Positions 1 through 63,271 of a stretch of 64,000 bases of DNA are shown here, piece by piece. Origin of the DNA: Eledone cirrhosa. Lineage: Eukaryota. The position numbers and the translations under genes are program-made. Below the pieces are notes generated by a model. That model was not told the origin of the DNA and did not search any database. It worked only from the letters and a program-made list of their open reading frames with translations. Positions within the stretch are counted from its first letter, which is position 1; each line of letters begins with the position of its first letter. The stretch spans positions 31,000,001 through 31,064,000 of the forward strand of contig OZ024761.1 of assembly GCA_964016885.1 (NCBI GenBank). Reading direction: 5' to 3'.

Positions 1-3000
1 GCTATGTGCTTTTACGATTCTCTAGAGAGGCCGGAAGATAGGTAAATATTGCTGATGAGTTGTAACAACAACGAAACTAGTTCAATATTCCTTGTCTGGC
101 TTTCTGGAGAATAGAGGAAAGGTGTTTCCTCAAAAACCAGTATGACTCTAAAAACCGGTTTGTCTGTGTGTTTACATACGGAATAGCTGGCCACTCACAG
201 TAAAGTGACCAGTGAAAAAAACTTGGTACATCTACATATGTATACGTGTGTGTATTCATATACATACTAGTATTTCAGTATACATATATGGATGTACATC
301 TTTAACTTAATTGTTTAAGCGTCAGTCATACAAAAGTGAGTTACAAACGAAACGAAATTTAATTTCGTTTCGTTATTTGTTTTTATCGTCTCCGTTGAAC
401 CGGTACTTACTCACACTCTATGCAAATTAGTCTGCCCACTACTAATTTTCATAGAAAAAGCATATAACGCTATGTGCTTTTACGATTCTCTAGAGAGGCC
501 GGAAGATAGGTAAATATTGCTGATGAGTTGTAACAACAACGAAACTAGTTCAATATTCCTTGTCTGGCTTTCTGGAGAATAGAGGAAAGGTGTTTCCTCA
601 AAAACCAGTATGACTCTAAAAACCGGTTTGTCTGTGTGTTTACATACGGAATAGCTGGCCACTCACAGTAAAGTGACCAGTGAAAAAAAACTTGGTACAT
701 CTACATATGTATACGTGTGTGTATTCATATACATACTAGTATTTCAGTATACATATATGGATGTACATCTTTAACTTAATTGTTTAAGCGTCAGTCATAC
801 AAAAGTGAGTTACAAACGAAACGAATTTAATTTCGTTTCGTTATTTGTTTTTATCGTCTCCGTTGAACCGGTACTTACTCACACTCTATGCAAATTAGTC
901 TGCCCACTACTAATTTTCATAGAAAAAGCATATAACGCTATGTGCTTTTACGATTCTCTAGAGAGGCCGGAAGATAGGTAAATATTGCTGATGAGTTGTA
1001 ACAACAACGAAACTAGTTCAATATTCCTTGTCTGGCTTTCTGGAGAATAGAGGAAAGGTGTTTCCTCAAAAACCAGTATGACTCTAAAAACCGGTTTGTC
1101 TGTGTGTTTACATACGGAATAGCTGGCCACTCACAGTAAAGTGACCAGTGAAAAAAACTTGGTACATCTACATATGTATACGTGTGTGTATTCATATACA
1201 TACTAGTATTTCAGTATACATATATGGATGTACATCTTTAACTTAATTGTTTAAGCGTCAGTCATACAAAAGTGAGTTACAAACGAAACGAAATTTAATT
1301 TCGTTTCGTTATTTGTTTTTATCGTCTCCGTTGAACCGGTACTTACTCACACTCTATGCAAATTAGTCTGCCCACTACTAATTTTCATAGAAAAAGCATA
1401 TAACGCTATGTGCTTTTACGATTCTCTAGAGAGGCCGGAAGATAGGTAAATATTGCTGATGAGTTGTAACAACAACGAAACTAGTTCAATATTCCTTGTC
1501 TGGCTTTCTGGAGAATAGAGGAAAGGTGTTTCCTCAAAAACCAGTATGACTCTAAAAACCGGTTTGTCTGTGTGTTTACATACGGAATAGCTGGCCACTC
1601 ACAGTAAAGTGACCAGTGAAAAAAACTTGGTACATCTACATATGTATACGTGTGTGTATTCATATACATACTAGTATTTCAGTATACATATATGGATGTA
1701 CATCTTTAACTTAATTGTTTAAGCGTCAGTCATACAAAAGTGAGTTACAAACGAAACGAAATTTAATTTCGTTTCGTTATTTGTTTTTATCGTCTCCGTT
1801 GAACCGGTACTTACTCACACTCTATGCAAATTAGTCTGCCCACTACTAATTTTCATAGAAAAAGCATATAACGCTATGTGCTTTTACGATTCTCTAGAGA
1901 GGCCGGAAGATAGGTAAATATTGCTGATGAGTTGTAACAACAACGAAACTAGTTCAATATTCCTTGTCTGGCTTTCTGGAGAATAGAGGAAAGGTGTTTC
2001 CTCAAAACCAGTATGACTCTAAAAACCGGTTTGTCTGTGTGTTTACATACGGAATAGCTGGCCACTCACAGTAAAGTGACCAGTGAAAAAAACTTGGTAC
2101 ATCTACATATGTATACGTGTGTGTATTCATATACATACTAGTATTTCAGTATACATATATGGATGTACATCTTTAACTTAATTGTTTAAGCGTCAGTCAT
2201 ACAAAAGTGAGTTACAAACGAAACGAAATTTAATTTCGTTTCGTTATTTGTTTTTATCGTCTCCGTTGAACCGGTACTTACTCACACTCTATGCAAATTA
2301 GTCTGCCCACTACTAATTTTCATAGAAAAAGCATATAACGCTATGTGCTTTTACGATTCTCTAGAGAGGCCGGAAGATAGGTAAATATTGCTGATGAGTT
2401 GTAACAACAACGAAACTAGTTCAATATTCCTTGTCTGGCTTTCTGGAGAATAGAGGAAAGGTGTTTCCTCAAAAACCAGTATGACTCTAAAAACCGGTTT
2501 GTCTGTGTGTTTACATACGGAATAGCTGGCCACTCACAGTAAAGTGACCAGTGAAAAAAACTTGGTACATCTACATATGTATACGTGTGTGTATTCATAT
2601 ACATACTAGTATTTCAGTATACATATATGGATGTACATCTTTAACTTAATTGTTTAAGCGTCAGTCATACAAAAGTGAGTTACAAACGAAACGAAATTTA
2701 ATTTCGTTTCGTTATTTGTTTTTATCGTCTCCGTTGAACCGGTACTTACTCACACTCTATGCAAATTAGTCTGCCCACTACTAATTTTCATAGAAAAAGC
2801 ATATAACGCTATGTGCTTTTACGATTCTCTAGAGAGGCCGGAAGATAGGTAAATATTGCTGATGAGTTGTAACAACAACGAAACTAGTTCAATATTCCTT
2901 GTCTGGCTTTCTGGAGAATAGAGGAAAGGTGTTTCCTCAAAAACCAGTATGACTCTAAAAACCGGTTTGTCTGTGTGTTTACATACGGAATAGCTGGCCA

Positions 3001-3658
3001 CTCACAGTAAAGTGACCAGTGAAAAAAACTTGGTACATCTACATATGTATACGTGTGTGTATTCATATACATACTAGTATTTCAGTATACATATATGGAT
3101 GTACATCTTTAACTTAATTGTTTAAGCGTCAGTCATACAAAAGTGAGTTACAAACGAAACGAAATTTAATTTCGTTTCGTTATTTGTTTTTATCGTCTCC
3201 GTTGAACCGGTACTTACTCACACTCTATGCAAATTAGTCTGCCCACTACTAATTTTCATAGAAAAAGCATATAACGCTATGTGCTTTTACGATTCTCTAG
3301 AGAGGCCGGAAGATAGGTAAATATTGCTGATGAGTTGTAACAACAACGAAACTAGTTCAATATTCCTTGTCTGGCTTTCTGGAGAATAGAGGAAAGGTGT
3401 TTCCTCAAAAACCAGTATGACTCTAAAAACCGGTTTGTCTGTGTGTTTACATACGGAATAGCTGGCCACTCACAGTAAAGTGACCAGTGAAAAAAACTTG
3501 GTACATCTACATATGTATACGTGTGTGTATTCATATACATACTAGTATTTCAGTATACATATATGGATGTACATCTTTAACTTAATTGTTTAAGCGTCAG
3601 TCATACAAAAGTGAGTTACAAACGAAACGAAATTTAATTTCGTTTCGTTATTTGTTTT

Positions 3659-9540: not shown

Positions 9541-9769
9541 ATGTATATATAATGTATTTTGCAATACACTTTATGCTTAATTAAAAGCATTTTGAAGACC
9601 GTAAGCTATTGTTTTAAAGTAGTGACAAATTCACTCACTTTGATCTCAGCAAATTTTTTGCTGAGATCAAAGTGAGTGAATTTGTCACTACTTTAAAACA
9701 ATAGCTTACGGTCTTCAAAATGCTTTTAATTAAGCATAAAGTGTATTGCAAAATACATTATATATACAT
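9541..9769. repeat. Near-perfect palindrome with about 113-bp arms in TA context
   Basis: Centre CTCAGCAAA-TTT-TTTGCTGAG at about 9655. Arms are reverse-complementary out to ATGTATATATAATG / CATTATATATACAT. Confidence 0.93.
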
Positions 9770-14088: not shown

Positions 14089-14508
14089 ATAAAATATTAA
14101 AAAAATAATGAATAAAACAATGAAACAGTTCCTTATATTAAACAAAAAAAGTTCATTATTTAACGATCGTTTCTAGGATATATATGTGTTAGAATTGGCA
14201 TGCATATTCAACAGATCTATGTACAAAATTATACAAAATTATACAAACTATCAAGATTAAATATACATACCAAACACACATATATGCCGTCTTCAGAAAT
14301 AAATTATTTCTGAAGACGGCATATATGTGTGTTTGGTATGTATATTTAATCTTGATAGTTTGTATAATTTTGTATAATTTTGTACATAGATCTGTTGAAT
14401 ATGCATGCCAATTCTAACACATATATATCCTAGAAACGATCGTTAAATAATGAACTTTTTTTGTTTAATATAAGGAACTGTTTCATTGTTTTATTCATTA
14501 TTTTTTTA

Positions 14509-14517
<9 letters not shown>
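14089..14517. repeat. Perfect palindrome with about 214-bp arms and a hammerhead motif on each strand
   Basis: Centre at 14303. Plus strand: ATTATTT-CTGAAGA(14310-14316)-long stem II-GAAA(14433)C-GATC-GTT-AAATAAT. Confidence 0.92.
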
Positions 14518-21361: not shown

Positions 21362-21972
21362 TAGCAGTGGTACCTGGCGTTGCACGGGATAAGGTATTTT
21401 GGAACGCGGGCCGCCAACAGACCTAATCATGGAAAAACTGCATGCCTGGACAATATGTAAAGAAAATAAACCGAATACTCTAATGGCTGGACAATCTTTA
21501 AGATTTTCCTCGATGAAGCCGGAAAAATGCAGGTTTTCACCTAATGCTAGGGGATCAAGAAAATGAATTTTTTTTTATGTGCATAATATGCCTTGAAATT
21601 CCCGGAAAATTGGCTATACGTAACGCCTCAAAAAAACCCCTAAAAAGCTGAAAAAAAATTTTTCACCTAATGCGGGCCCTAGGCCATAAAAAAGTTGGAG
21701 TTTCTTTGCTCACGGTATGAAGAAGAGACTGACTAATACATAGTCACAATTTCAAGGAAATCGGTCTGACATAACGCCTCAAAAGACCCCTAAAAAGCTG
21801 AAAAAACGCAGTTTTTCACCTACTGTGGGCCCTAGGGGATCAAAAAGTTGATAACACTCCCTGAAACATAAGTAATACACTTGTAAAGTTTAAAAAAAAT
21901 CGGTTGGGTACTTTTCGAGTTTTAGGGATTCAAACTCAGACAGACAGACATCCTCAGTTTTATATATATAGA
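21360..21972 (-). mobile_element. Non-autonomous Helitron-like element; further Helitron-like ends at 21973-22200 and about 22470-22515
   Basis: Minus strand starts TCTATATATATAAAA..(GTCT)n and ends CCCGTGCAACGCCAGG..CTGCTAGT (subterminal hairpin plus CTAG). Has an internal about 150-bp duplication. Confidence 0.65.
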
Positions 21973-23543
21973 ATAGCAGAAAACCACCCAGAGTGCGGTT
22001 TTCTGCTAGTCTATATATCTAAAACAGAGAATGTCTGTCTGTCTGTCAGCTCACTAAAACTTGAGAACCATCCAACCGATTGTTTTCAAACTTTAGACAT
22101 GTAATACTTATGGTCCTGTGAGTGTTTTGAGCAAAAATTGAGCAAAAATTATTTCAAATTTTCAATGCCCTAGGGACCGCAGGCGTTCTCTCTATATAAT
22201 TCTTAGTCTTTCTTTTTAGATAGATACATAGATATAACGTTGCGCCCTTATAATATCTGTCTGTATGTCTGGCTGTCTGCATTACGTCATTATGATGCGC
22301 TCAGCGCGATTCCCTCGGCCTCAGTAACCAAAGTTAGTGGAGAGGGGAAGGTAATGTTTCTGTAGCACGTGTTTTAGCGTCTATTCACTCTCTCTCTCCC
22401 GCTATCCCCCTCTTGTAGTCTGTCTCTTTCTTTCACTCTCACTCTCTCTCTACGCACGTGTTTCCACTGTCGGACAGACAGACAGAGAAATTGCTGGTTA
22501 TATATATAAGTAGATGAGTAAGTAATTGAAAACAGGATATATTTGGAGTGAGATGTTTCTTGTCAATCATACTGGTGTCACACTAAAATGTACCCAACCA
22601 CTTGCTGTAAAGTGATTGGTGTTAGGAAGGGCATCCAGCTGTAGAGATGTGCTAAGAGAGAATGAACAAGTTATACATCGTCATCTGTCTTATCTAGTTT
22701 CATAACAAAACATCCTGTTTGTGTGTGTCGTGGGAAGGGAATTGGGATTTGAATGCCGTGTCATTTTGTTCAATGTCAGAAATGAACTGCCACAATGATG
22801 AAAAATTTCTATTGTTCAGTTGAAATACATCCTGGTCTGTGGTCTGTGGTTGTTTCTCAACCAATTAAGTCAGTTTGTGAATAGTCCAAAATATTTTTTG
22901 TACTTGGTACACCACTTTATTTTGGTGTCTAGTTCTGGGTTAGCACATTCTAGAACATTCTATCACATGATTATTATTTTCATGGAAACATTTAACTCCT
23001 TATCAATATACCAACACTGCATTATCAAAGTTAGGTAGGTTTGTTATTGAACTTATAGCAGTGGAAATTTTTGGAGTTCTTGCCCCCCTCCTCGAGTCAT
23101 CTCCCTATTTACTGCTATTGGGGATGGAGTTGGCCACACACAGGAGTGAGTCCCATGAAGTGGACGGGAGTTCTTGGTCCCCAAACCATCTCCCTACTCA
23201 CTGCTATTGGAGATGGAGTTGGCCACACACAGGAGTGAGTCCCACAAAGTAGACTGGCTTCTTGTCAAACCTGTACCAGTGGAGACCACTGGTGTCCTGA
23301 GTAAGTGTGTGTGTGTGTGTGTATCATCATCATCGATTAACGTCTATCTTCCACGCTAGCATGGATTAGACGGGTTTGTCCCATTTAGATGCAAGTTGGG
23401 TCGGGTGACCGTGTCTTGCCCTTCCTAACACCTACATTTTACACTGCAGGCTGGATGTTTTGAGGTACCAGTATAATATACGTATATACATATATTAAGT
23501 AAGAATATTTTCGAAACAGCGAGTGGGTTTAAAATTATTAGAA

Positions 23544-27168: not shown

Positions 27169-27747
27169 GTGGATTTCCGATGGAGGAACAGAGTTTTAAA
27201 AAAAAAGGCACTCAATAAGTTGATAGAGTATAGGCATCTTTATTTTATATAGAAATGTCTTTCTTCTACATGACTAGAACTGTTTCATTCTTATGAAATC
27301 ATCAGGAATGATGATTTTGTATGAATGAAACAGTTCTAGTCCTGTAGAAGTTATTTTTATATAAGAGAGAGAGAGTGAGAGAAGGGAAAGAGAGAAAGAG
27401 AGTGAGGGGGAGAGAAAGATTGAGTGAGAGAGTGAGGGGAGAGAGAGAGAGAGAGAGGGGAGTAAATAGAAAATAAATTAATTATGATTATTAAGAAGCA
27501 GAATTATGTAAAACATTTTGTCTCCGCCTTACAACTGCAGGAATTAACTTCTATTGTTTAGAGCAGGTGAAATACTTTGAAAGCAGCCTTTGTCCCAATT
27601 ATTTGTTTTGCCAGCTGAAGAAGTCAGTTAGATAGTTGTAATAATTGTTTTCGATTGGGACACAAAGCGAACAATTTTTAGGGCAGGGTGAGTCGATTAA
27701 ATTGACCTGAATACATTACTGGTATTTTATTCTATTGACCCTGTAAG

Positions 27748-31962: not shown

Positions 31963-34051
31963 GTATATGTATATATATATGTGTGTGTGTGTGTGTATGT
32001 GTAAAACACCGAAAGAAAGACAGTAAGGTCTGATTTGAGGGAGATTTAGTAGCTATTTCTGCCATATAATATTTGAAATTGTTGATGATGATGATTTCTT
32101 TTTAATGAAACAGTTCTATATTGAACATGATGTTTACACTCTACTAATGTATTGAGTACCTTACTTACTGTGGTTTGAATCCAGGACTCACACAAAACCC
32201 CATCGACATAGAGTAGAAATTACGAAGCGTCGAAAGATAACCGATCTTCAACTAGTATTTTCGATATAATCCAATATATGTCTTAGCATAGAGACTTAGC
32301 TGAAAAACAACAACCGATAATTGGGGTTTCGATTGGTGCAGAAATAGGGTCTTGGATAAATGTTAGGGGTTTTTCTTTGGGGTGGGAGAAGGGAGATGGT
32401 AACTGCATGGCTGGCGTTCGATCAATACTTTCTAGTTCAACATTCTTGCCCCAACACTTATCAAGGAATTGTGTGTGTGTGCACGAGCCCTTGGGGCTAG
32501 AGCTGTGTGTGTGTGTGTGTGTGTGTGTGAGAGTTCGTAAAGCTGGATTTATTTGTATATGGGGGCAGGGTGGGTGGGTGCTAAATAATAATTCCTTTAA
32601 CACCCCTCTAGACAGAATGTGCTTCCAAGTAGTCTATATATATATGTAGCGAAATCACCCTTCGTTAAATATATATATATTTATTGAGAAGTGCGCTAGC
32701 AGCCGAAGTGTATAATAAAGTTATATCTATATATCCAATGTGTAGGTATGTAAAGACGCCAGAAAATACGAATTTCCCTGTATTTATACAGATATAACTT
32801 TATGTATATACACATACACATTATATATATATATATATACACACACACACATACGTGTTTGTATGTACGTCAGTGCATATGTGTGTTTAGGCACACGTTC
32901 GTATGAATAAGTGTGTTGACACATGTTTGCATGTATATATGTGTGGGTGTGTATGTGTCGACTAATTTTTCTATGTACAAGCAAGCATGCACATATTAGA
33001 ATGCATACGCGTGTATGCACATGTTTGTGTATATACATGTGTCTATATGCGCGTATTTGCATGTAAACGTGTGTGTATGCTCATCTATATATGAGTGTAC
33101 ATGTATTAATGTATAATATGTATACACAGAGACACCGAAATATATAGGCTCATGTGAATCTGGGAATATTTATTTGCTATAGCTATAAATCAAAATGCAG
33201 TGTTGTTTGTTCTCTTTAGAAAACAGTATACAATTTTATCACCTAAATTATACTACTTTGGCGAGAAGCATTGGCTTCTCACGCTCCACACACACACACT
33301 TAAATTTACACCCAACCCAACAAAAAACTTTAAAAAAAGGCAGAATATTGATCCACTAACAACGCAAACTACGTCAAATCTGTGTTTTTCCTTTCCTCAT
33401 CCAACTGTATAAATATCTTATCCTTGTTTCTACAACACACTTTCCTTCTTTTCCGTTTCTTCACTCCCATTATCGGAACTGATGTTTTCATTTCATCCTC
33501 TAATCAACAATTCCTCATATATCTATCTATCATTCTCTGTCTCTTTCTATCTTTCTCTCTTCCTCCATACAACATCCATGTGAACATGTCTCTGTCTCTC
33601 TCTATGTTTACATGTGGTTGCATGCGAAATCGCTCGTCTTTCCGTGTATATGTATGTATACATACGTGCATGTGCGAGGGAATGCGCGCGTGTGTATGCA
33701 TGTGCGTGTATGTGTGTACATACGTACACGCGTGTGTGAATACATAGATTATTGTGTATATGTGGATACGTGCATGTTTGTGTAAATACATGTGCGTGTA
33801 TGCGTATACGTACGAGTGTCGAGTGTTTGTATGTGTGCATATGTACATGTGTGTGTGTGTGTATACTTGCACGCTACCGAGTTAATTTCCACTTGTTATA
33901 TACAACTTACCTTGAAAAATATTGGTTCTGCATTAAATAGTGTCATTTCTTATCCATTGCCAATCTGTGTGAATGGATAAATATATACGTTCGTTGATTT
34001 ATATATATATATATATATGTTCACAACTGTGTTCGTTGATTTATATATATG

Positions 34052-34090
<39 letters not shown>

Positions 34091-34519
34091 TTATATATAT
34101 ATATATGTGTGTGTGTATATGTGTATGGTGTATTTCTTCTTCTTTCTGTCAGATACACTTCGATAACGACAATAATACAGGGAGTGTAAGCTCCTGTGTT
34201 GTATACAATCGTTTAAAAAAAAAGATCCGCTGTCCTACCAAATAACCAACATTTATGACAACATTTGCCGGAGCAAATGGCAGTCTAATTTAGGACGGCT
34301 CACCCCGTCTTCTTATCTCTCTCTCTCTTGACACTCCTCCGTTAGCCTCTTCTTTCTATGTTTTTCTCTTTCTTTTTCTCTCTCTCTCTTGACACTTCTC
34401 CGTTAGCCTCTTCTTTCTACGTTTTTCTCTTTCTTTTTCTCTCTCTTCACACTTTCTTTCCCGTCAGTCTCTTCGTTCTACGTTTTTCTCTCTCTTTTTC
34501 TCCCTCTGTTTTATATACA

Positions 34520-34640
<121 letters not shown>

Positions 34641-34849
34641 CTTTATCCCACTCTCTCTCGATATCGATCTCTCTCTATATATGTTCTCATCGTCTTTCAC
34701 TCGTCACCTCTGTACCTTCTCTCTCTCTATTTCTTCCTCCCACCCCATCTATCTTCTATATGGTTTACTTCTATCTCTCTTACAAACAAACACACAAAGT
34801 ACCAGTAATGTACTGAATTAATTGCTGGCCTTGTGCCAAACGTAGAAAC

Positions 34850-34893
<44 letters not shown>

Positions 34894-34951
34894 GCGTGTG
34901 TGCGCGCGTACCCTGTTGTACAGCCGACCGCGTTATTCTTCATTCTTTTAC

Positions 34952-35177
<226 letters not shown>

Positions 35178-35689
35178 CACATAATTATGTATATATAAAT
35201 ACACATACACATATAACCCTCACCACCACATTTATCACCAAACATATACATCTATCAGTCTTTTCGTTGGTCTCTGTTGCTGCATATTAGTTCCACTCCC
35301 TAACCTCTATTCCCTACCCACCCTCCCCTCTACCTACCCCTTACCCAGCCCCCTTAACCTCTACTTTCCACCACCACCATCATCCTCTAGTGTACCCTCC
35401 AATCCCTACTCACCACTCCTACCCTTCACCCACCCTAACCCTCAACCCTACCCTGTACCCCCTTCATCTACATAGCCATCTCCTTTTCCTCCTGTATGGC
35501 ATATAGCCTCCTTGCCCCCTACCTCGCCACCCAGTAAATTTACTCTTCTTTCTTATTTGGTTCTTTTATTTGTATCCACCCCCAACCCCAATTTTTGTCA
35601 TTCCCCAACACCACCACTTCAAAACAGTATCACCGCCACTGCCACTATCCCCATCACTGTTGCAGTCACCACCATTGCCACCACAATCA

Positions 35690-36592
35690 TCACCACTATC
35701 ACCAGCACCACCACCAACAACACCAACACATTCCTCACCACTATTGCCACCACAATCATCACCAGCAACAACACCAACACTGCTAACCACAATCATCACC
35801 ACCACCACCACCACCACCAACACCAACACGATCTTCACAACTGCCACCACAATCATCACCACCATCACCAGTACCAGCACCAGCACCACCACCACCAGTA
35901 CCACCACCACCACCACCACCAACACAATTTTCACAACTACCTCCACAATCATCACCACCACCACCAGCACCACCAACACCACCACCAACACCAACACGAT
36001 CTTCACAACTGCCACCACAATCATCACCAGTACCAGCACCAGCACCACCACCACCAGTACCACCACCACCATCACCAACAACACAATCTTCACAACTACC
36101 TCCACAATCATCACCACCATCACCAGTACCAGCACCGCCACCACCACCACCACCACCACCACCACCACCACCAACACCAACACCAACACCACCAACAACA
36201 CAATCTTCGCAACTGCCACCACAATCATCACCACCACCACCAGTACCACCACCACCACCACCACCAACAACACAATCTTCACAACTACCTCCACAATCAT
36301 CACCACCATCACCAGCACCAGCACCACCACCACCACCACCACCAGCACCACCACCACCAACAACACAATCTTCACAACTACCTCCACAATCATCACCACA
36401 ATCACCAGCACCACCACCACCAGCACCACCACCACCAACAACACAATCTTCACAACTACCTCCACAATCATCACCACCATCACCAGCACCACCACCACCA
36501 TCACCAGCACCACCACCACCACCACCAGCACCACCACCACCTCCAACACAATCTTCACAACTACCTCCACAATCATCACCACCATCACCAGT

Positions 36593-36623
<31 letters not shown>

Positions 36624-39600
36624 CCACCAACACGATCTTCACAACTGCCACCACAATCATCACCATCAACAACACCAACATCAACACCACCAACACAATC
36701 CTCACCAACACTGCCACCACAATCACCACCACCACCACCAGTACCAACAACAACAACAACACCAACACACTCTTCACCACCACAATCATCACCCTCAACA
36801 CCACCAACACAACCATCACCACCATCACCAGCACCACCACCACCAACATAATCATCACCACCATCAACAGCACCAGCACCACCACCACCAACACCACCAC
36901 CACCACCAACACCAACACTGCCACACCAATCATCACCACCACCACCACCAACACTGCCACACCAATCACCACCACCACCACCACCACCACCAACACTGCC
37001 ACACCAATCACCACCACCACCACCACCAACACTGCCACACCAATCACCACCACCACCAACACTGCCACACCAATCACCACCACCACCACCACCACCAACA
37101 CTGCCACACCAATCACCACCACCACCACCACCACCAACACTGCCACACCAATCACCACCACCACCAACACTGCCACACCAATCACCACCACCACCACCAC
37201 CACCAACACTGCCACACCAATCACCACCACCACCACCACCAACACTGCCACACCAATCACCACCACCACCATCACCAACACTGCCACACCAATCATCATC
37301 ACCACCACCACCACCAACACTGCCACACCAATCACCACCACCACCACCACCACCAACACTGCCACACCAATCACCACCACCACCACCACCACCAACACTG
37401 CCACACCAATCACCACCACCACCACCACCACCAACACTGCCACACCAATCACCACCACCACCACCACCAACACTGCCACACCAATCACCACCACCACCAT
37501 CACCAACACTGCCACACCAATCATCATCACCACCACCACCACCAACACTGCCACACCAATCACCACCACCACCACCACCACCAACACTGCCACACCAATC
37601 ACCACCACCACCACCACCACCAACACTGCCACACCAATCACCACCACCACCACCACCACCAACACTGCCACACCAATCACCACCACCACCACCACCAACA
37701 CTGCCACACCAATCACCACCACCACCATCACCAACACTGCCACACCAATCATCATCACCACCACCACCACCAACACTGCCACACCAATCACCACCACCAC
37801 CACCACCAACACTGCCACACCAATCACCACCACCACCACCACCACCAACACTGCCACACCAATCACCACCACCACCACCACCAACACTGCCACACCAATC
37901 ACCACCACCACCATCACCAACACTGCCACACCAATCATCATCACCACCACCACCACCAACACTGCCACACCAATCACCACCACCACCATCACCAACACTG
38001 CCACACCAATCACCACCACCACCACCACCACCAACACTGCCACACCAATCACCACCACCACCACCACCAACACTGCCACACCAATCACCACCACCACCAC
38101 CACCACCAACACTGCCACACCAATCACCACCACCACCACCACCAACACTGCCACACCAATCACCACCACCACCATCACCACCAACACTGCCACACCAATC
38201 ACCACCACCACCACCACCACCAACACTGCCACACCAATCACCACCACCACCACCACCACCAACACTGCCACACCAATCACCACCACCACCACCACCACCA
38301 ACACTGCCACACCAATCACCACCACCACCACCACCAACACTGCCACACCAATCACCACCACCACCATCACCAACACTGCCACACCAATCATCATCACCAC
38401 CACCACCACCAACACTGCCACACCAATCACCACCACCACCACCACCAACACTGCCACACCAATCACCACCACCACCACCACCACCAACACTGCCACACCA
38501 ATCACCACCACCACCAACACTGCCACACCAATCACCACCACCACCACCACCACCAACACTGCCACACCAATCACCACCACCACCACCACCAACACTGCCA
38601 CACCAATCACCACCACCACCATCACCAACACTGCCACACCAATCACCACCACCACCACCACCACCAACACTGCCACACCAATCACCACCACCACCACCAC
38701 CAACACTGCCACACCAATCACCACCACCACCACCACCACCAACACTGCCACACCAATCACCACCACCACCATCACCAACACTGCCACACCAATCACCACC
38801 ACCACCACCACCACCAACACTGCCACACCAATCACCACCACCACCACCACCAACACTGCCACACCAATCACCACCACCACCACCACCACCAACACTGCCA
38901 CACCAATCACCACCACCACCACCACCAACACTGCCACACCAATCACCACCACCACCATCACCAACACTGCCACACCAATCATCATCACCACCACCACCAC
39001 CAACACTGCCACACCAATCACCACCACCACCACCACCAACACTGCCACACCAATCACCACCACCACCACCACCAACACTGCCACACCAATCACCACCACC
39101 ACCATCACCAACACTGCCACACCAATCACCACCACCACCACCACCACCAACACTGCCACACCAATCACCACCACCACCACCACCAACACTGCCACACCAA
39201 TCACCACCACCACCACCACCACCAACACTGCCACACCAATCACCACCACCACCACCACCAACACTGCCACACCAATCACCACCACCACCATCACCAACAC
39301 TGCCACACCAATCATCATCACCACCACCACCACCAACACTGCCACACCAATCACCACCACCACCACCACCAACACTGCCACACCAATCACCACCACCACC
39401 ACCACCACCAACACTGCCACACCAATCACCACCACCACCACCACCAACACTGCCACACCAATCACCACCACCACCATCACCAACACTGCCACACCAATCA
39501 TCATCACCACCACCACCACCAACACTGCCACACCAATCACCACCACCACCACCACCACCAACACTGCCACACCAATCACCACCACCACCACCACCAACAC

Positions 39601-40335
39601 TGCCACACCAATCACCACCACCACCACCACCACCAACACTGCCACACCAATCACCACCACCACCACCACCAACACTGCCACACCAATCACCACCACCACC
39701 ATCACCAACACTGCCACACCAATCATCATCACCACCACCACCACCAACACTGCCACACCAATCACCACCACCACCACCACCACCAACACTGCCACACCAA
39801 TCACCACCACCACCACCACCACCAACACTGCCACACCAATCACCACCACCACCACCACCACCAACACTGCCACACCAATCACCACCACCACCAACACTGC
39901 CACACCAATCACCACCACCACCACCACCACCAACACTGCCACACCAATCACCACCACCACCACCACCAACACTGCCACACCAATCACCACCACCACCATC
40001 ACCAACACTGCCACACCAATCATCATCACCACCACCACCACCAACACTGCCACACCAATCACCACCACCACCACCACCACCAACACTGCCACACCAATCA
40101 CCACCACCACCACCACCACCAACACTGCCACACCAATCACCACCACCACCACCACCACCAACAGCAACAATGCCCCCACAACCACCACCACCAACACAAT
40201 CCTCACCACCACTGTCACCCCAATCATCACTGCTACTATCTCCATCACAAACACCACCATCATAACATCGTCATCGTTGTTGACACCATCATCATCGCCA
40301 TCATCGTCGTCATCATCATCATCATCATCATCATC
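35690..40335. repeat. CAC-rich low-complexity region with a 27-39-bp minisatellite (AACACTGCCACACCAAT(CAC)n) at about 36910-40160
   Basis: Many tandem units differing in the number of CAC triplets. Confidence 0.95.
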
Positions 40336-41189
40336 ACAACACTATAGAACTGAACTAATCCCTAACTATTCCTGATTATGATAAGATAATAAGTGATGGA
40401 GGTGGTTCTATGGTTGAAATGTGAGTATGAAGTCATCATGCCTAACCCTAACCCCTTAGCATTTAAACCGGCCATATCCGGCCAGAATTCTCTCACTTCT
40501 TTCTGTTTAAACCAGCCATAACCGTCTGCTCATACTTATGTTAAGGTATTGTTCTCAAAATAAATTATATCGAAATCTGATAGATTCGATGTTATGTGAG
40601 CTAGTTATGTCCGGCCAGAATTCTCTCACTTCTTTCTGTTTAAATCAGCCATAACCAGCTGCTCATACTTATGTTAAAGTATTGTTCTCAAAATAAATAA
40701 TATCAAAATCTCATAGATTCGATATTATGTGAGGTAAAGTGTTTACTTTGAAAATACAATAGTAAATATAGAGTAATGTAAATGCTAAAGGGTTAAAGGA
40801 GTGACACGAGATGACAGCTCCGATACTATGGGCTTGTGGTTAGAATATCTCAGGAAAGAATTACTGGACAGATTATTACGAGCAAAGCCAACCAACAAGA
40901 GACCAAGTGTTAAACCCTGAGTGGTTAGATAACATCCATGAGCTTGGCTGGTCACGCTTGGGGATCCAGCTGAATCAGCTGGAGATGGTTGCTTCTAAAA
41001 GGATCCGCTGGAAAGAGTGTTGAAGGATTCTGCCCCCACAACCCTCTCAGGAATAAGTGGGTGAAGAAGAAGAAGAAGACTCCTACACTCAGTTTTCGTA
41101 TGTAGTTGACTTGTGATTATTGAGGCACTCATTGTATTAACCTATTTGATACCAACCCAGCTGAAACCAGCTCTGGTTCTATGAAATAA

Positions 41190-41900
41190 AACCACTCATT
41201 TAAAAGGGTTCCTATTTAAACCTTTTAGTACTTTGTCAACCAAAACTGCTCTCACAAAACCACCCATTTTAAAGAGTTCCTATCTAAACCTTTTAATACT
41301 TTGTCAACCAAAACTGCTCTCACAAAACCACCCATTTTAAAGAGTTCCTATTTAAACATTTAATACTTTGTCAACCAAAACTGCTCTCACAAAACCACCC
41401 ATTTTAAAGGGTTCCTATTTAAACCTTTTAGTACTTTGTCAACCAAAACTGCTTTCACAAAACCACCCATTTTAAAGAGTTCCTATCTAAACCTTTTAAT
41501 ACTTTGTCAACCAAAACTGCTCTCACAAAACCACCCATTTTAAAGGGTTCCTATTTAAACCTTTTAGTACTTTGTCAACCAAAACTGCTCTCACAAAACC
41601 ACCCATTTTAAAGAGTTCCTATTTAAACCTTTTAATACTTTGTCAACCAAAACCACCCATTTTAAAGGGTTCCTATTTAAACCTTTTAGTACTTTGTCAA
41701 CCAAAACTACTCTCACAAAACCACCCATTTTAAAGAGTTCCTATCTAAACCTTTTAATACTTTGTCAACCAAAACTGCTCTCACAAAACCACCTATTTTA
41801 AAGGGTTCCTATTTAAACCTTTTAGTACTTTGTCAACCAAAACTGCTCTCACAAAACCACCCATTTTAAAAAGTTCTTATTTAAACATTTTGGTACGTTG
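41190..41900. repeat. 68-bp minisatellite, about 10 units
   Basis: CAAAACTGCTCTCACAAAACCACCCATTTTAAAG... recurs at 41241, 41309 and onward. Confidence 0.92.
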
Positions 41901-42859
41901 TCATCAAATGCTGTCCCTGGTTCTATGAAACAAAACCATCCAGTTTAATAGGCGTGTGTGTGTGGTATTAACTGTAGTTTAATAGGTGCGTATGATGTCA
42001 ACTTCTCGACCAAACACTTAAAATAATTCTGACAAAAATACACAAATTCCAACACAAAATGCCAACCACACAAGATGATGTGTGACAATGGTTTACAATT
42101 GAACAGAAATTTAGTTGTTTTATGTGAAATTATTAGAGCAAAATAACATCCTGCTTATGGAATATTGTAAAAAAAGTTAATATTTTTTATGTGTTTGCCT
42201 TTCATATATAAACGTCTGGTCATTTCCTTGACAGGAAATATCATGTTATTAAGTTTGAAATAGCAGGATATCAAGAGAAAAATTGATCACATAGGTTAGA
42301 GGGTTCAGTTTTTGGCTGTTGTAGATTTTTTGGGGAAAAACCTGTAGAAATAATTCACAAATATAAGCAACAAGGAAAAAAAAATTCTTTTGTTACCGTA
42401 TTTTGGCTTAGTGGTTAGAGCATTGACCTTGCAATCGAAAGGTTGTGAGTTCAATTCTCAGACCGGGTGATGTGTTGTTTCCTTGAGCAAGACACTTTAT
42501 TTCACATTGCTCCAGTTTACTCAGATGTAGAAATGAGATGATAGGGACTGGGGTCCCTATCATTCCACTGCAAAGTGGTCGTGGAGGTGCCACGGCAAAA
42601 AGCATCCAGCACTCACTGTAAATGAGGTTGGTGTTAGAAAGGGCATCCAGCTGTAGAAATCAAGCCAGAATCAGTTCCCGTCCCACCCTTGCAAGCAGGG
42701 AAAAGCGGACGTAAAATGAAATGATGAATGATGATGAAACTGCCTACAGATTTAAAATCATTTTGAAAATAATCAAGAATTTGAATGGATTTAGTAATAT
42801 AACTAACTTTCTTTATTGTGTTGTATCAGATGAAAGAATGGTATTTAACTAATGTATTG

Positions 42860-54484: not shown

Positions 54485-54492
<8 letters not shown>

Positions 54493-55029
54493 ATACTTTG
54501 GGAGGGTCATGTTGCCAATAAGAAACACACGCACCAGTTGCTTTCACTTCAATTTATTATAATAAATTTATAATAAATTTATAAATTTATAAATTTCTGG
54601 TTGGTTGGTTGGTTGGTTCCACAACCAGATAGTTGTTTATATATAGTCATAGTTCTTTCGTCACACGCTCTGTGACCTCTTCAGTGACTGGGGATTCCTT
54701 TCTTTGTTTCTGTGCCTCTCCTTTGTTCTGTCCTACGCCTTCTGTGCCTCTCCTTTGTTCTGTCCTACGCCGTTTTGTGGCGTAGGACAGAACAAAGGAG
54801 AGGCACAGAAACAAAGAAAGGAATCCCCAGTCACTGAAGAGGTCACGGAGTGTGTGACGAAAGAACTATGACTATATATAAACAACTATCTGGTTGTGGA
54901 ACCAACCAACCAACCAGAAATTTATAAATTTATAAATTTATTATAAATTTATTATAATAAATTGAAGTGAAAGCAACTGGTGCATGTGTTTCTTATTGGC
55001 AACATGACCCTCCCAAAGTATAACAATAT
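54485..55029. repeat. Palindromic element with about 250-bp arms and a hammerhead in each arm
   Basis: Plus strand: AGTCA-CTGAAGA(54834-54840)-G-GTCAC..GTGAC-GAAA-GAAC-TA-TGACT. Mirror copy at about 54645-54690. The left arm has a 32-bp tandem duplication. Confidence 0.88.
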
Positions 55030-55081
55030 CGGTTTCAACACACGATTTCAGATAAAGAATCTTGCCAAACAAATTCAGAAA

Positions 55082-55115
<34 letters not shown>

Positions 55116-55191
55116 CGAAGGAAACGTGGGAAGGAACCAGGTGGACCATAATGCACCAAAGTACTCAATACTTAGGGTAGTAGAGTGGGTA

Positions 55192-55310
55192 ATAGGAACA
55201 AGTAAGACCCCGACGGCTGAGCTCAAGCCGTTTCGACGGCTAATTCTGGCGTCCAGAATTAGCCGTCGAAACGGCTTGAGCTCAGCCGTCGGGGTCTTAC
55301 TTGTTCCTAT
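55192..55310. repeat. Perfect palindrome made of two 3' halves of a hammerhead
   Basis: Centre CTGG-CGT-CCAG. Each strand reads ..GCCGTC-GAAA-CGGCT-TGAGCTC-AGCC-GTC-GGGGTC. Confidence 0.85.
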
Positions 55311-55393
55311 ATATATATATATATATATACAAAATGAACTTAAAACGGTAAGTTCTTGTTTTGGGATGTCAATATTTATAAAACAATTTTTGT

Positions 55394-55452
55394 ATTTTAT
55401 CTGATGAGGGCGTACCAAAATTTTGGTACCCTTGAAATATATATAATAAAAT
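55394..55452 (+). ncRNA. Type I hammerhead; inverted duplicate at about 63150-63210
   Basis: ATTTTAT-CTGATGA(55401-55407)-GGGCGTACCAA/TTGGTACCCTT-GAAA-TATATA-TA-ATAAAAT. Confidence 0.8.
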
Positions 55453-55586
55453 AAATATGGTTTTATAAAGACAGTTTCCATGTATTAATATCATTGATAT
55501 TATACTCCAGAAAAAAATCTTGTAGAGTGCTTCGTATCTGTTATAAATGAATTTGTTGAATAACCAACAAATTAAATATCTCTTTG

Positions 55587-56834: not shown

Positions 56835-57043
56835 TAAAATAACATTAAAGTTTAAGCAAAGAATCGCTGCTTTCACCCTTAATGGGATCTTCTGAAACTC
56901 AAGCCCTCTTTGGATTTTAGTCTTCAAATTTATTATTATTACTATATATATATATATATATATAAAGTTATTCCGGGTTGAATCGGAGGTAACCACAGTA
57001 AGTAAGGTACTCAATACATTGCAGAGTATAAATGTTTTAATAT

Positions 57044-57152
57044 AGAAGAGCTTCTACAGGACTAGAACTGTTTCATTCATGAGAAATCATCAGGAAGCGC
57101 TTCCTGATGATTCCTCACAAATGAAACAGTTCTAGTCCTGTAGAAGCTCTTC
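57044..57152. ncRNA. Back-to-back hammerhead pair (palindrome centred at about 57098)
   Basis: GCTTC-CTGATGA(57104-57110)-stem II-GAAA(57123)-CAG..CTG-TA-GAAGC, with its reverse complement immediately upstream. Confidence 0.82.
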
Positions 57153-57167
57153 CATATTATATATATA

Positions 57168-59925: not shown

Positions 59926-60058
59926 TTAGTCATGTAATAAACAACATAAGATGATTATTTGATTTACCAGTGGTTTCTTGAAGGCAGACACAACATCTGT
60001 CTTCAAGAAACCACTGGTAAATGAAATAATTATCTTATGTTGTTTATTACATAACTAA
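59926..60058. repeat. Palindrome made of two hammerhead 3' halves
   Basis: Centre TGAAGGCAGA-CACAACA-TCTGTCTTCA, then A-GAAA-CC-ACT-GG-TA-AATG on both strands. Confidence 0.75.
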
Positions 60059-60177
60059 TAAGCTCTGTAGCCTACATAGAGCACTCTTTTTTCCTGTACC
60101 TTTCTGACGGAAATACTTCACATATATATATGTATATATATATGTAAATATATGTATATATATGTATATGTATATAT

Positions 60178-63016: not shown

Positions 63017-63271
63017 AGCAAAGAGATATTTAATTTGTTGGTTATTCAACAAATTTATTTATAACAGATTCGAAGCACTCTACAGGATTTTTCTGGAATA
63101 TAATATCAATGATATTAATACATGGAAACTATCTTTATAAAACCATATTTATTTTATTATATATATTTCAAGGGTACCAAAATTTTGGTACGCCCTCATC
63201 AGATAAAATACAAAAATTGTTTTATAAATATTGACATCCCAAAACAAGAACTTACCGTTTTAAGTTCATTT

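Follow-up and report, generated by a model that had tools for sequence, protein, structure and literature searches.

A palindrome holding two ribozyme halves

The 64,000-nt stretch of the Eledone cirrhosa genome analysed here (the window) contains at 55195-55307 a perfect palindrome whose 55-nt arms flank the 3-nt centre CGT, and this raises the question of how a sequence comes to carry one half of a hammerhead ribozyme on both of its strands and the other half on neither. On each strand, GAAA (starting at 55268 on the plus strand and at 55234 on the minus strand) is followed by stem III, whose loop is palindromic, and then by GUC and GGGGT. On the plus strand this 3' half spans 55268-55295, with the loop TGAGCTCA, GUC at 55288-55290 and GGGGT as the 3' strand of stem I. 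The CUGANGA half, with the 5' core box and the 5' strand of stem I, is absent from both arms, and no hammerhead was found at this copy among the 150 of 293 Rfam matches listed. Rfam matches of miRNA type to palindromes and TA repeats were all below threshold and were discarded. Up to this point the locus is as described in the original prediction, which had gone on to propose that a cDNA folded back at the ribozyme's own stem II and self-primed its second strand, so that RNA structure dictated the DNA rearrangement.

Two features had been overlooked, an 80-nt tail on the left arm and (TA)n at both ends. The left arm runs on through 55115-55194 (minus strand), a stretch absent from the right arm, and (TA)n adjoins both outer ends (55084-55114 and 55308-55329). 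With element positions numbered from the G of GAAAC as 0, the tailed arm (55195-55249, minus strand) covers -15 to +39, including the 3' half of the hammerhead, and the tail-less arm (55251-55307, plus strand) covers -17 to +39 and stops at an internal site between CC and TA (CC/TA). Where the arms meet there is a 1-base insertion at 55250, the junction being scored as -15/-17. The central hairpin (55237-55269) is not stem II, as had been supposed; because the native stem-loop II of non-palindromic copies is different and about 54 nt long, this hairpin was created by the inversion. We also considered a MITE or TIR DNA transposon and rejected it, as the two ends differ and the junctions vary from locus to locus, with neither a fixed length nor identical termini.

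An identical arrangement, but extended on the right, is found at 59926-60058 (plus strand), a head-to-head palindrome of a second family, family B, which has GAAA at 60007 and, as predicted, stem III and GUA (60017-60019). Its tail is on the right arm only (60059-60120, plus strand) and is followed by (TA)n. At this site the palindrome does centre on the native stem-loop II: the non-palindromic copies L034, L035 and L041 have CTGACGA and then the same hairpin and loop. The fold of 59926-60058 has z = -12.4. Neither palindrome is a product of chance, since both come from repeat families: exact matches in the 3.0-Gb genome numbered 24,224 for a 27-mer of the first palindrome (family A) and 741 for a 23-mer of the second (family B), while both reversed-pattern controls gave 0.

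Other repeats lie in the same window. A tandem array of 468-bp units at 1-3650, which we take to resemble a retrozyme-type repeat, contains eight matches to the Rfam hammerhead model HH9, at 37.7 bits against a gathering score of 52. Palindromes of a third family, family C, at 57040-57157 and 27273-27340 have their centre just 5' of the core, one tailed arm, and arms that retain all or almost all of the hammerhead. A different family contributes two identical, complete type I hammerheads, which lie 7.8 kb apart at 55391-55455 (plus strand) and about 63150-63210 (minus strand). Palindromes of other families that are flanked by TA or arranged head to head also occur, at 9552-9758, 14092-14514, 21937-22045 and about 54490-55030; the centres of some are met again at other loci, and no hammerhead was recognised in any of these four. 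A block with strong strand skew at 34000-42000 (GC skew about -0.9 and AT skew about +0.7 at 36-40 kb) is probably composed of simple repeats.

Identity of family A and its complete hammerhead

Thousands of head-to-head stubs were left by a Penelope-like retrotransposon, and the window palindrome is among them. Long copies of family A encode a reverse transcriptase (RT) followed by a GIY-YIG domain, and arrays that repeat in tandem every 3,531-3,546 bp (about 3.53 kb) contain intact ORFs of 717-719 aa (L381-L384) with YRDDG and YIG motifs, that is, a single ORF with the RT and then GIY-YIG, as in EN+ Penelope-like elements (PLEs). The general PLE layout was found as well, with tandem or partial-tandem copies, a pLTR, an optional tail and an inverted short copy. 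The protein contains RWR, DKT, CNCPDRSIC (the CxCX5C linker), CNLC (CxxC) and CKH (CxH), which together with insertion into (TA)n correspond to the RWK-like, DKT, CxCX5C, CxxC/CxH and target features of the Hydra clade; judged by these motifs and not by a tree, family A can be assigned to that clade. Neighbours of the ORF in the ESM Atlas (0.96-0.99) included GIY-YIG and RVT_1 clusters, Pfam gave no match for it, and a PDB sequence search also failed to recognise the RT. The arrays, composed of near-identical 3.53-kb units, are L381-L385 (G000 C1:437.20 Mb, C1:91.48 Mb and C2:11.11 Mb), and those with intact ORFs (L381-L384) are candidate active sources. In family B, the tail, TA targets and hammerhead are present, and on the protein side only a 96-aa GIY-YIG-like peptide was seen, in one of 13 long loci examined (L210).

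The original prediction had expected GACCC(C)-CTGANGA upstream of the same hairpin. An upstream core half does exist in full family A copies, bearing out that the palindromes carry hammerhead halves of a retroelement family, but it takes the form ACCCC-TTGANAA, about 61 nt upstream of GAAA, with CTGANAA in some subfamilies (3,516 matches), and it precedes a different, longer stem II. Full copies hold the parts of a type I hammerhead, with ACCCC (the pairing partner of GGGGT), UUGANAA, GAAA and GUC, and both the core boxes and stems I-III were found. The core is of the U3:A8 type, a described variant of PLE hammerheads (PMC4209133), and CTGANGA is not the form present. Among 20 aligned full copies, picked by core pattern, N7 was represented by all four bases and six copies had a C3-A8 mismatch, the divergence being too low to show stem covariation. 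This mismatch would be expected to weaken catalysis, yet several subfamilies that have C3 with A8 reached a high copy number. Most copies read through the cleavage site, and hence their templates were uncleaved at GUC. The apical loop of the native stem II is predicted at about -30 to -23 (fold of L063; z only -1.2).

Two 3' ends, a 5' limit and an added G

In tailed arms the end before TA is fixed (identical in 94 of 173, with most others being point variants), while tail-less arms end at the internal CC/TA. Nearly all short palindromes combine the two, 98 out of 102 joining one tailed and one tail-less arm, with two tailed on both arms and two unclear. At 362 matches the tail is joined to 5' UTR sequence instead of TA, and in the 30 such loci viewed the sequence is 5' UTR, reaching an ATG about 92 nt on where long enough. 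The order in the element is therefore loop II, GAAA half, tail, 5' UTR and ATG, and the GAAA half and tail form the leader of the coding RNA, because the tail runs on into the 5' UTR and ATG. The tails of families A and C, otherwise unalike, have GTATTGAGTAC in common (window positions 55161-55171, 57007-57017 and 32149-32159), which may be a protein-binding site lying between the RT start sites.

At the opposite end, we scored the 5' stop of 137 unique tail-anchored copies, retained from 151 inputs after dropping duplicates and six without a tail anchor. Stops fell at -10 to -24 in 87 copies, at -9 or 3' of it in 35, past -100 in 14 and between -25 and -99 in only one (L142, scored at -30, lies at about -75 by eye, and L194, scored at -20, is a long copy with a 1-nt deletion). 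None of the 102 short inverted partners reached beyond -24, and the solo copies L148, L158 and L167 stop at the same wall. The wall contains TCAGT or TTAGT (TYAGT), an Initiator-like motif with its A at -18; no match to a DPE at +28 was seen by eye. About a quarter of the tailed arms (32/137) score -20 to -24, beyond A(-18), stops that are explained in part by microhomology at ATTC/GAAT and may call for an additional start close to A(-22). A splice acceptor at TTCAG was ruled out, as arms extend past the AG, and so was poly(A) cleavage at the wall, AATAAA being absent from most subfamilies. No sharp wall was resolved in family B. Among the first 100 full-core copies, 48 had a full-core inverted partner within 5.2 kb, against roughly 11% long arms; because long arms pair with long arms, the data fit short and long classes of RNA template and not independent stalls.

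The base just before A(-18) is also peculiar. In the first 100 of 3,903 R-AGTCC matches, the purine before A(-18) was G in 88 and A in 12, compared with 25 G and 75 A at the control position -16 (first 100 of 873; Fisher p = 3e-20), these sets of 100 being the earliest positions on contig C1 instead of a random sample, with counts made by eye. Of the non-native bases at -18, G accounted for 16/100, and G preceded A(-22) in only 27/100, T being native there in one subfamily. The added G is not a genomic variant, since in the native upstream context it was found 7 times versus 5,614 with T or C, and the intact arrays, which come from the subfamily richest in G copies, have T at this position. 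It is present on both arms at 141 loci, in several subfamilies, often with a T before it, and also after bare TA or unrelated flank (L329, L339 and L321). When 43 G arms were inspected by eye, no shared sequence was found upstream of the G. The partner arm could have supplied the G in about half of them and could not in the others, which include copies joined directly to TA. By analogy, a non-genomic G is the signature that would be expected from copying an mRNA cap, as untemplated 5' G at L1/SVA junctions has been read as a copied 7mG cap (PMC4859970). In family C (57040 type), G precedes the A located 7 nt upstream of the core (AGCTTCC) in 38 of 100 matches, a count without a control position that is no more than suggestive. 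The window copy lacks the G, its arms ending at -17 and -15, so for this copy the cap step rests on the family.

Origin of the head-to-head copies

From the sequence features described above, we consider it probable that the palindrome consists of head-to-head short PLE copies in (TA)n, formed when two target-primed cDNAs ran off the 5' end of a capped RNA and were then end-joined. The main transcription start would be A(-18) of TCAGT/TTAGT, within loop II, as predicted from the DNA. The endonuclease would nick both strands of (TA)n, the RT would prime at two leader sites, the tail end and CC/TA, and the two cDNAs, some 140 and 60 nt long, would each run off at the cap, the G being a putative copy of the m7G cap. 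The two cDNA 3' ends would be trimmed by a few bases and joined head to head at short microhomologies or with templated insertions, and long copies would derive from read-through RNA reaching a downstream pLTR. The CUGA-equivalent half would be missing from the stubs because it lies upstream of the proposed RNA start. Direct-orientation joins of the 5' UTR/ORF start to a wall-starting arm, with 1-3 nt of microhomology, were observed at L353, L354, L355, L357 and L360 and suggest template jumps after run-off.

In the competing idea, a single cDNA folds back, on stem II or on a small hairpin in loop II, and self-primes the second arm; self-priming has been proposed for such junctions (PMC3846280). 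A fold-back arm cannot exceed its template strand, and the first strand must be the tailed one. However, in 26 long inverted loci, mostly chosen for a core in both arms, the longer arm was the tailed one in 12 and the tail-less one in 10, with two near-symmetric, one tailed on both arms and one unresolvable. The tail-less arm is therefore not a copy of the tailed arm, as it reaches further 5' in 10/22 asymmetric long pairs (binomial p = 0.83), several by >1 kb, although deletions after insertion could explain some of the asymmetry. Among 93 short pairs the tailed arm was longer in 33, the tail-less arm in 25, and 35 were within 2 nt. The presence of the G on both arms at 141 loci also argues against fold-back. 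Inverted arms of family A include loop-II sequence (to between -10 and -24), and the 5' strand of stem II was kept in no short palindrome of this family, the opposite of what a stem-II fold-back predicts. Junctions that are loopless and self-complementary are common (GTAC in five loci, also TGAGCTCA and TCGA), as are templated insertions of repair type (L109, L147, L152, L162 and L250).

Other observations agree with fold-back at least in part. The subfamily marker was the same on both arms in 79 of 88 pairs, so that the arms come from one RNA or one source, as fold-back likewise predicts. The native loop is in the tailed arm at the 59926 site and at L060, and nine junctions at the ATTC/GAAT mini-hairpin of family A loop II have the compatible orientation, against four mirror junctions (L086, L172, L189 and L159); a further mirror junction is L226 of family B, centred on stem II with the native loop in the tail-less arm. 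A tally by eye of 30 tail-anchored family B loci, counting three near-identical loci as one, gave about 17 palindromes, 11 with a core in at least one arm and only one or two centred on stem II. In 1.43 Mb of sequence with 272 palindromes, four other hammerhead-bearing clusters were found, in which the centre is mostly 0-95 nt 5' of the core and in a few cases within stem II. Centres are not random, as the original prediction had it, but in these other families they are mostly 5' of the whole ribozyme. RNA structure does provide microhomology at some junctions, namely the 59926 site and the mini-hairpin loci, and fold-back is possible there, but as the general cause it is contradicted by the longer tail-less arms and the loop-II sequence in the arms, and we regard it as very unlikely.

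It is also conceivable, but unlikely, that two primings took place but that the wall marks either a structure at which the RT halts or an uncapped RNA end left by cleavage within the stem II apical loop, with a terminal-transferase preference accounting for the G. The predicted apical loop adjoins the wall (its z being only -1.2) and some arms go past -18, but enrichment of the G is confined to a single position, the partners of long arms are long as well, unlike in a random stall, and the family C G lies 5' of the whole ribozyme, away from the stem II apex. If the stubs were instead a non-autonomous family from short master loci, with a transcript starting at a templated G, the ratio of short to full-core copies of about 7 to 1 (24,224 versus 3,516), the T that often precedes the G and the retention of all leader sequence downstream of the start would be accounted for. 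We find this highly improbable, given that nothing is shared upstream of the G among the 43 arms, junctions differ between loci and the G occurs in several subfamilies; it would, moreover, still place the RNA 5' end at -19/-18. The repair-type insertions at the five loci named above would suit a shrinking of long inverted insertions after integration by deletion of the palindrome centre, a process that gives no reason for a one-position wall, for solo copies ending at it or for the added G, and that has a negligible chance of being the explanation.

Priming of two cDNAs that run off a capped leader may extend to PLEs at large, a generalisation that we put forward tentatively and with some doubt. 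The RT would prime both strands from two sites of a capped leader, and the run-off cDNAs would either join head to head, giving tens of thousands of hairpin stubs, or jump templates into partial tandems, with palindrome centres mapping the start of each family. Here, the promoter would split the ribozyme, self-cleavage at the 5' end would be impossible for the coding RNA, and the whole hammerhead would be confined to read-through RNA. If true, a major origin of this genome's short perfect hairpins would be explained, and PLE promoters could be read from junction sequences alone, the family A model predicting a transcription start to the single base. The route of inverted insertion and the role of the hammerhead are both open questions in the PLE literature, as far as represented in the sources cited here.

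Earlier publications already describe inverted truncated copies, the tail, the U3-A8 core and a pair of RT starts, and the self-priming idea, mostly contradicted in family A, was not new either (PMC3846280). In the portion of the open-access literature covered, no fixed run-off point, cap-type G on both arms or ribozyme-splitting start was found. C-terminal EN+ PLEs of the Hydra clade target (TA)n and have a hammerhead, an inverted 5'-truncated copy and a tail on one end (PMC8557442), all of which family A shares, together with the RT then GIY-YIG order, RWR in place of RWK, DKT, the CxCX5C linker, and CxxC and CxH around conserved E and N. It differs in having a unit of 3.53 kb versus "generally <3 kb", a tail of 80 nt versus 30-40 nt, and a U3:A8 core with a long stem II; the sections of that source considered here do not describe a fixed truncation point or a cap G. 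Minimal PLE hammerheads (PMC4209133) resemble family A in the U3-A8 variant, the palindromic loop 3, an extra base after position 9 and ribozyme pairs on opposite strands, whereas the family A stem-loop II is about 54 nt long and likely holds the transcription start, and most copies are only the 3' half.

The non-genomic G at the 5' junction is shared with full-length L1/SVA insertions (PMC4859970), but in family A it is found at stubs about 60 and 140 nt long and may be present on both arms of one insertion. For PAc, a Poseidon element of Anolis, both target strands are cut and extended in vitro, two internal RT starts bound the tail and the RNA is uncleaved (PMC11167929). Family A would agree in both-strand priming, in two internal RT starts that define the tail and in an uncleaved template, with the difference that the PAc starts are in the ORF and both family A starts are in the 5' leader; in the parts of the PAc study considered, inverted insertions are not explained and the RNA 5' end is not mapped. 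Lastly, the inverted pLTR junctions of Adineta Penelope elements (PMC3846280) have junction palindromes, an optional tail and an Inr-like motif in the pLTR, as family A does. They were read as self-priming on an antisense template, whereas family A favours two sense-templated cDNAs and provides genomic evidence for priming of both target strands in vivo, against that published reading.
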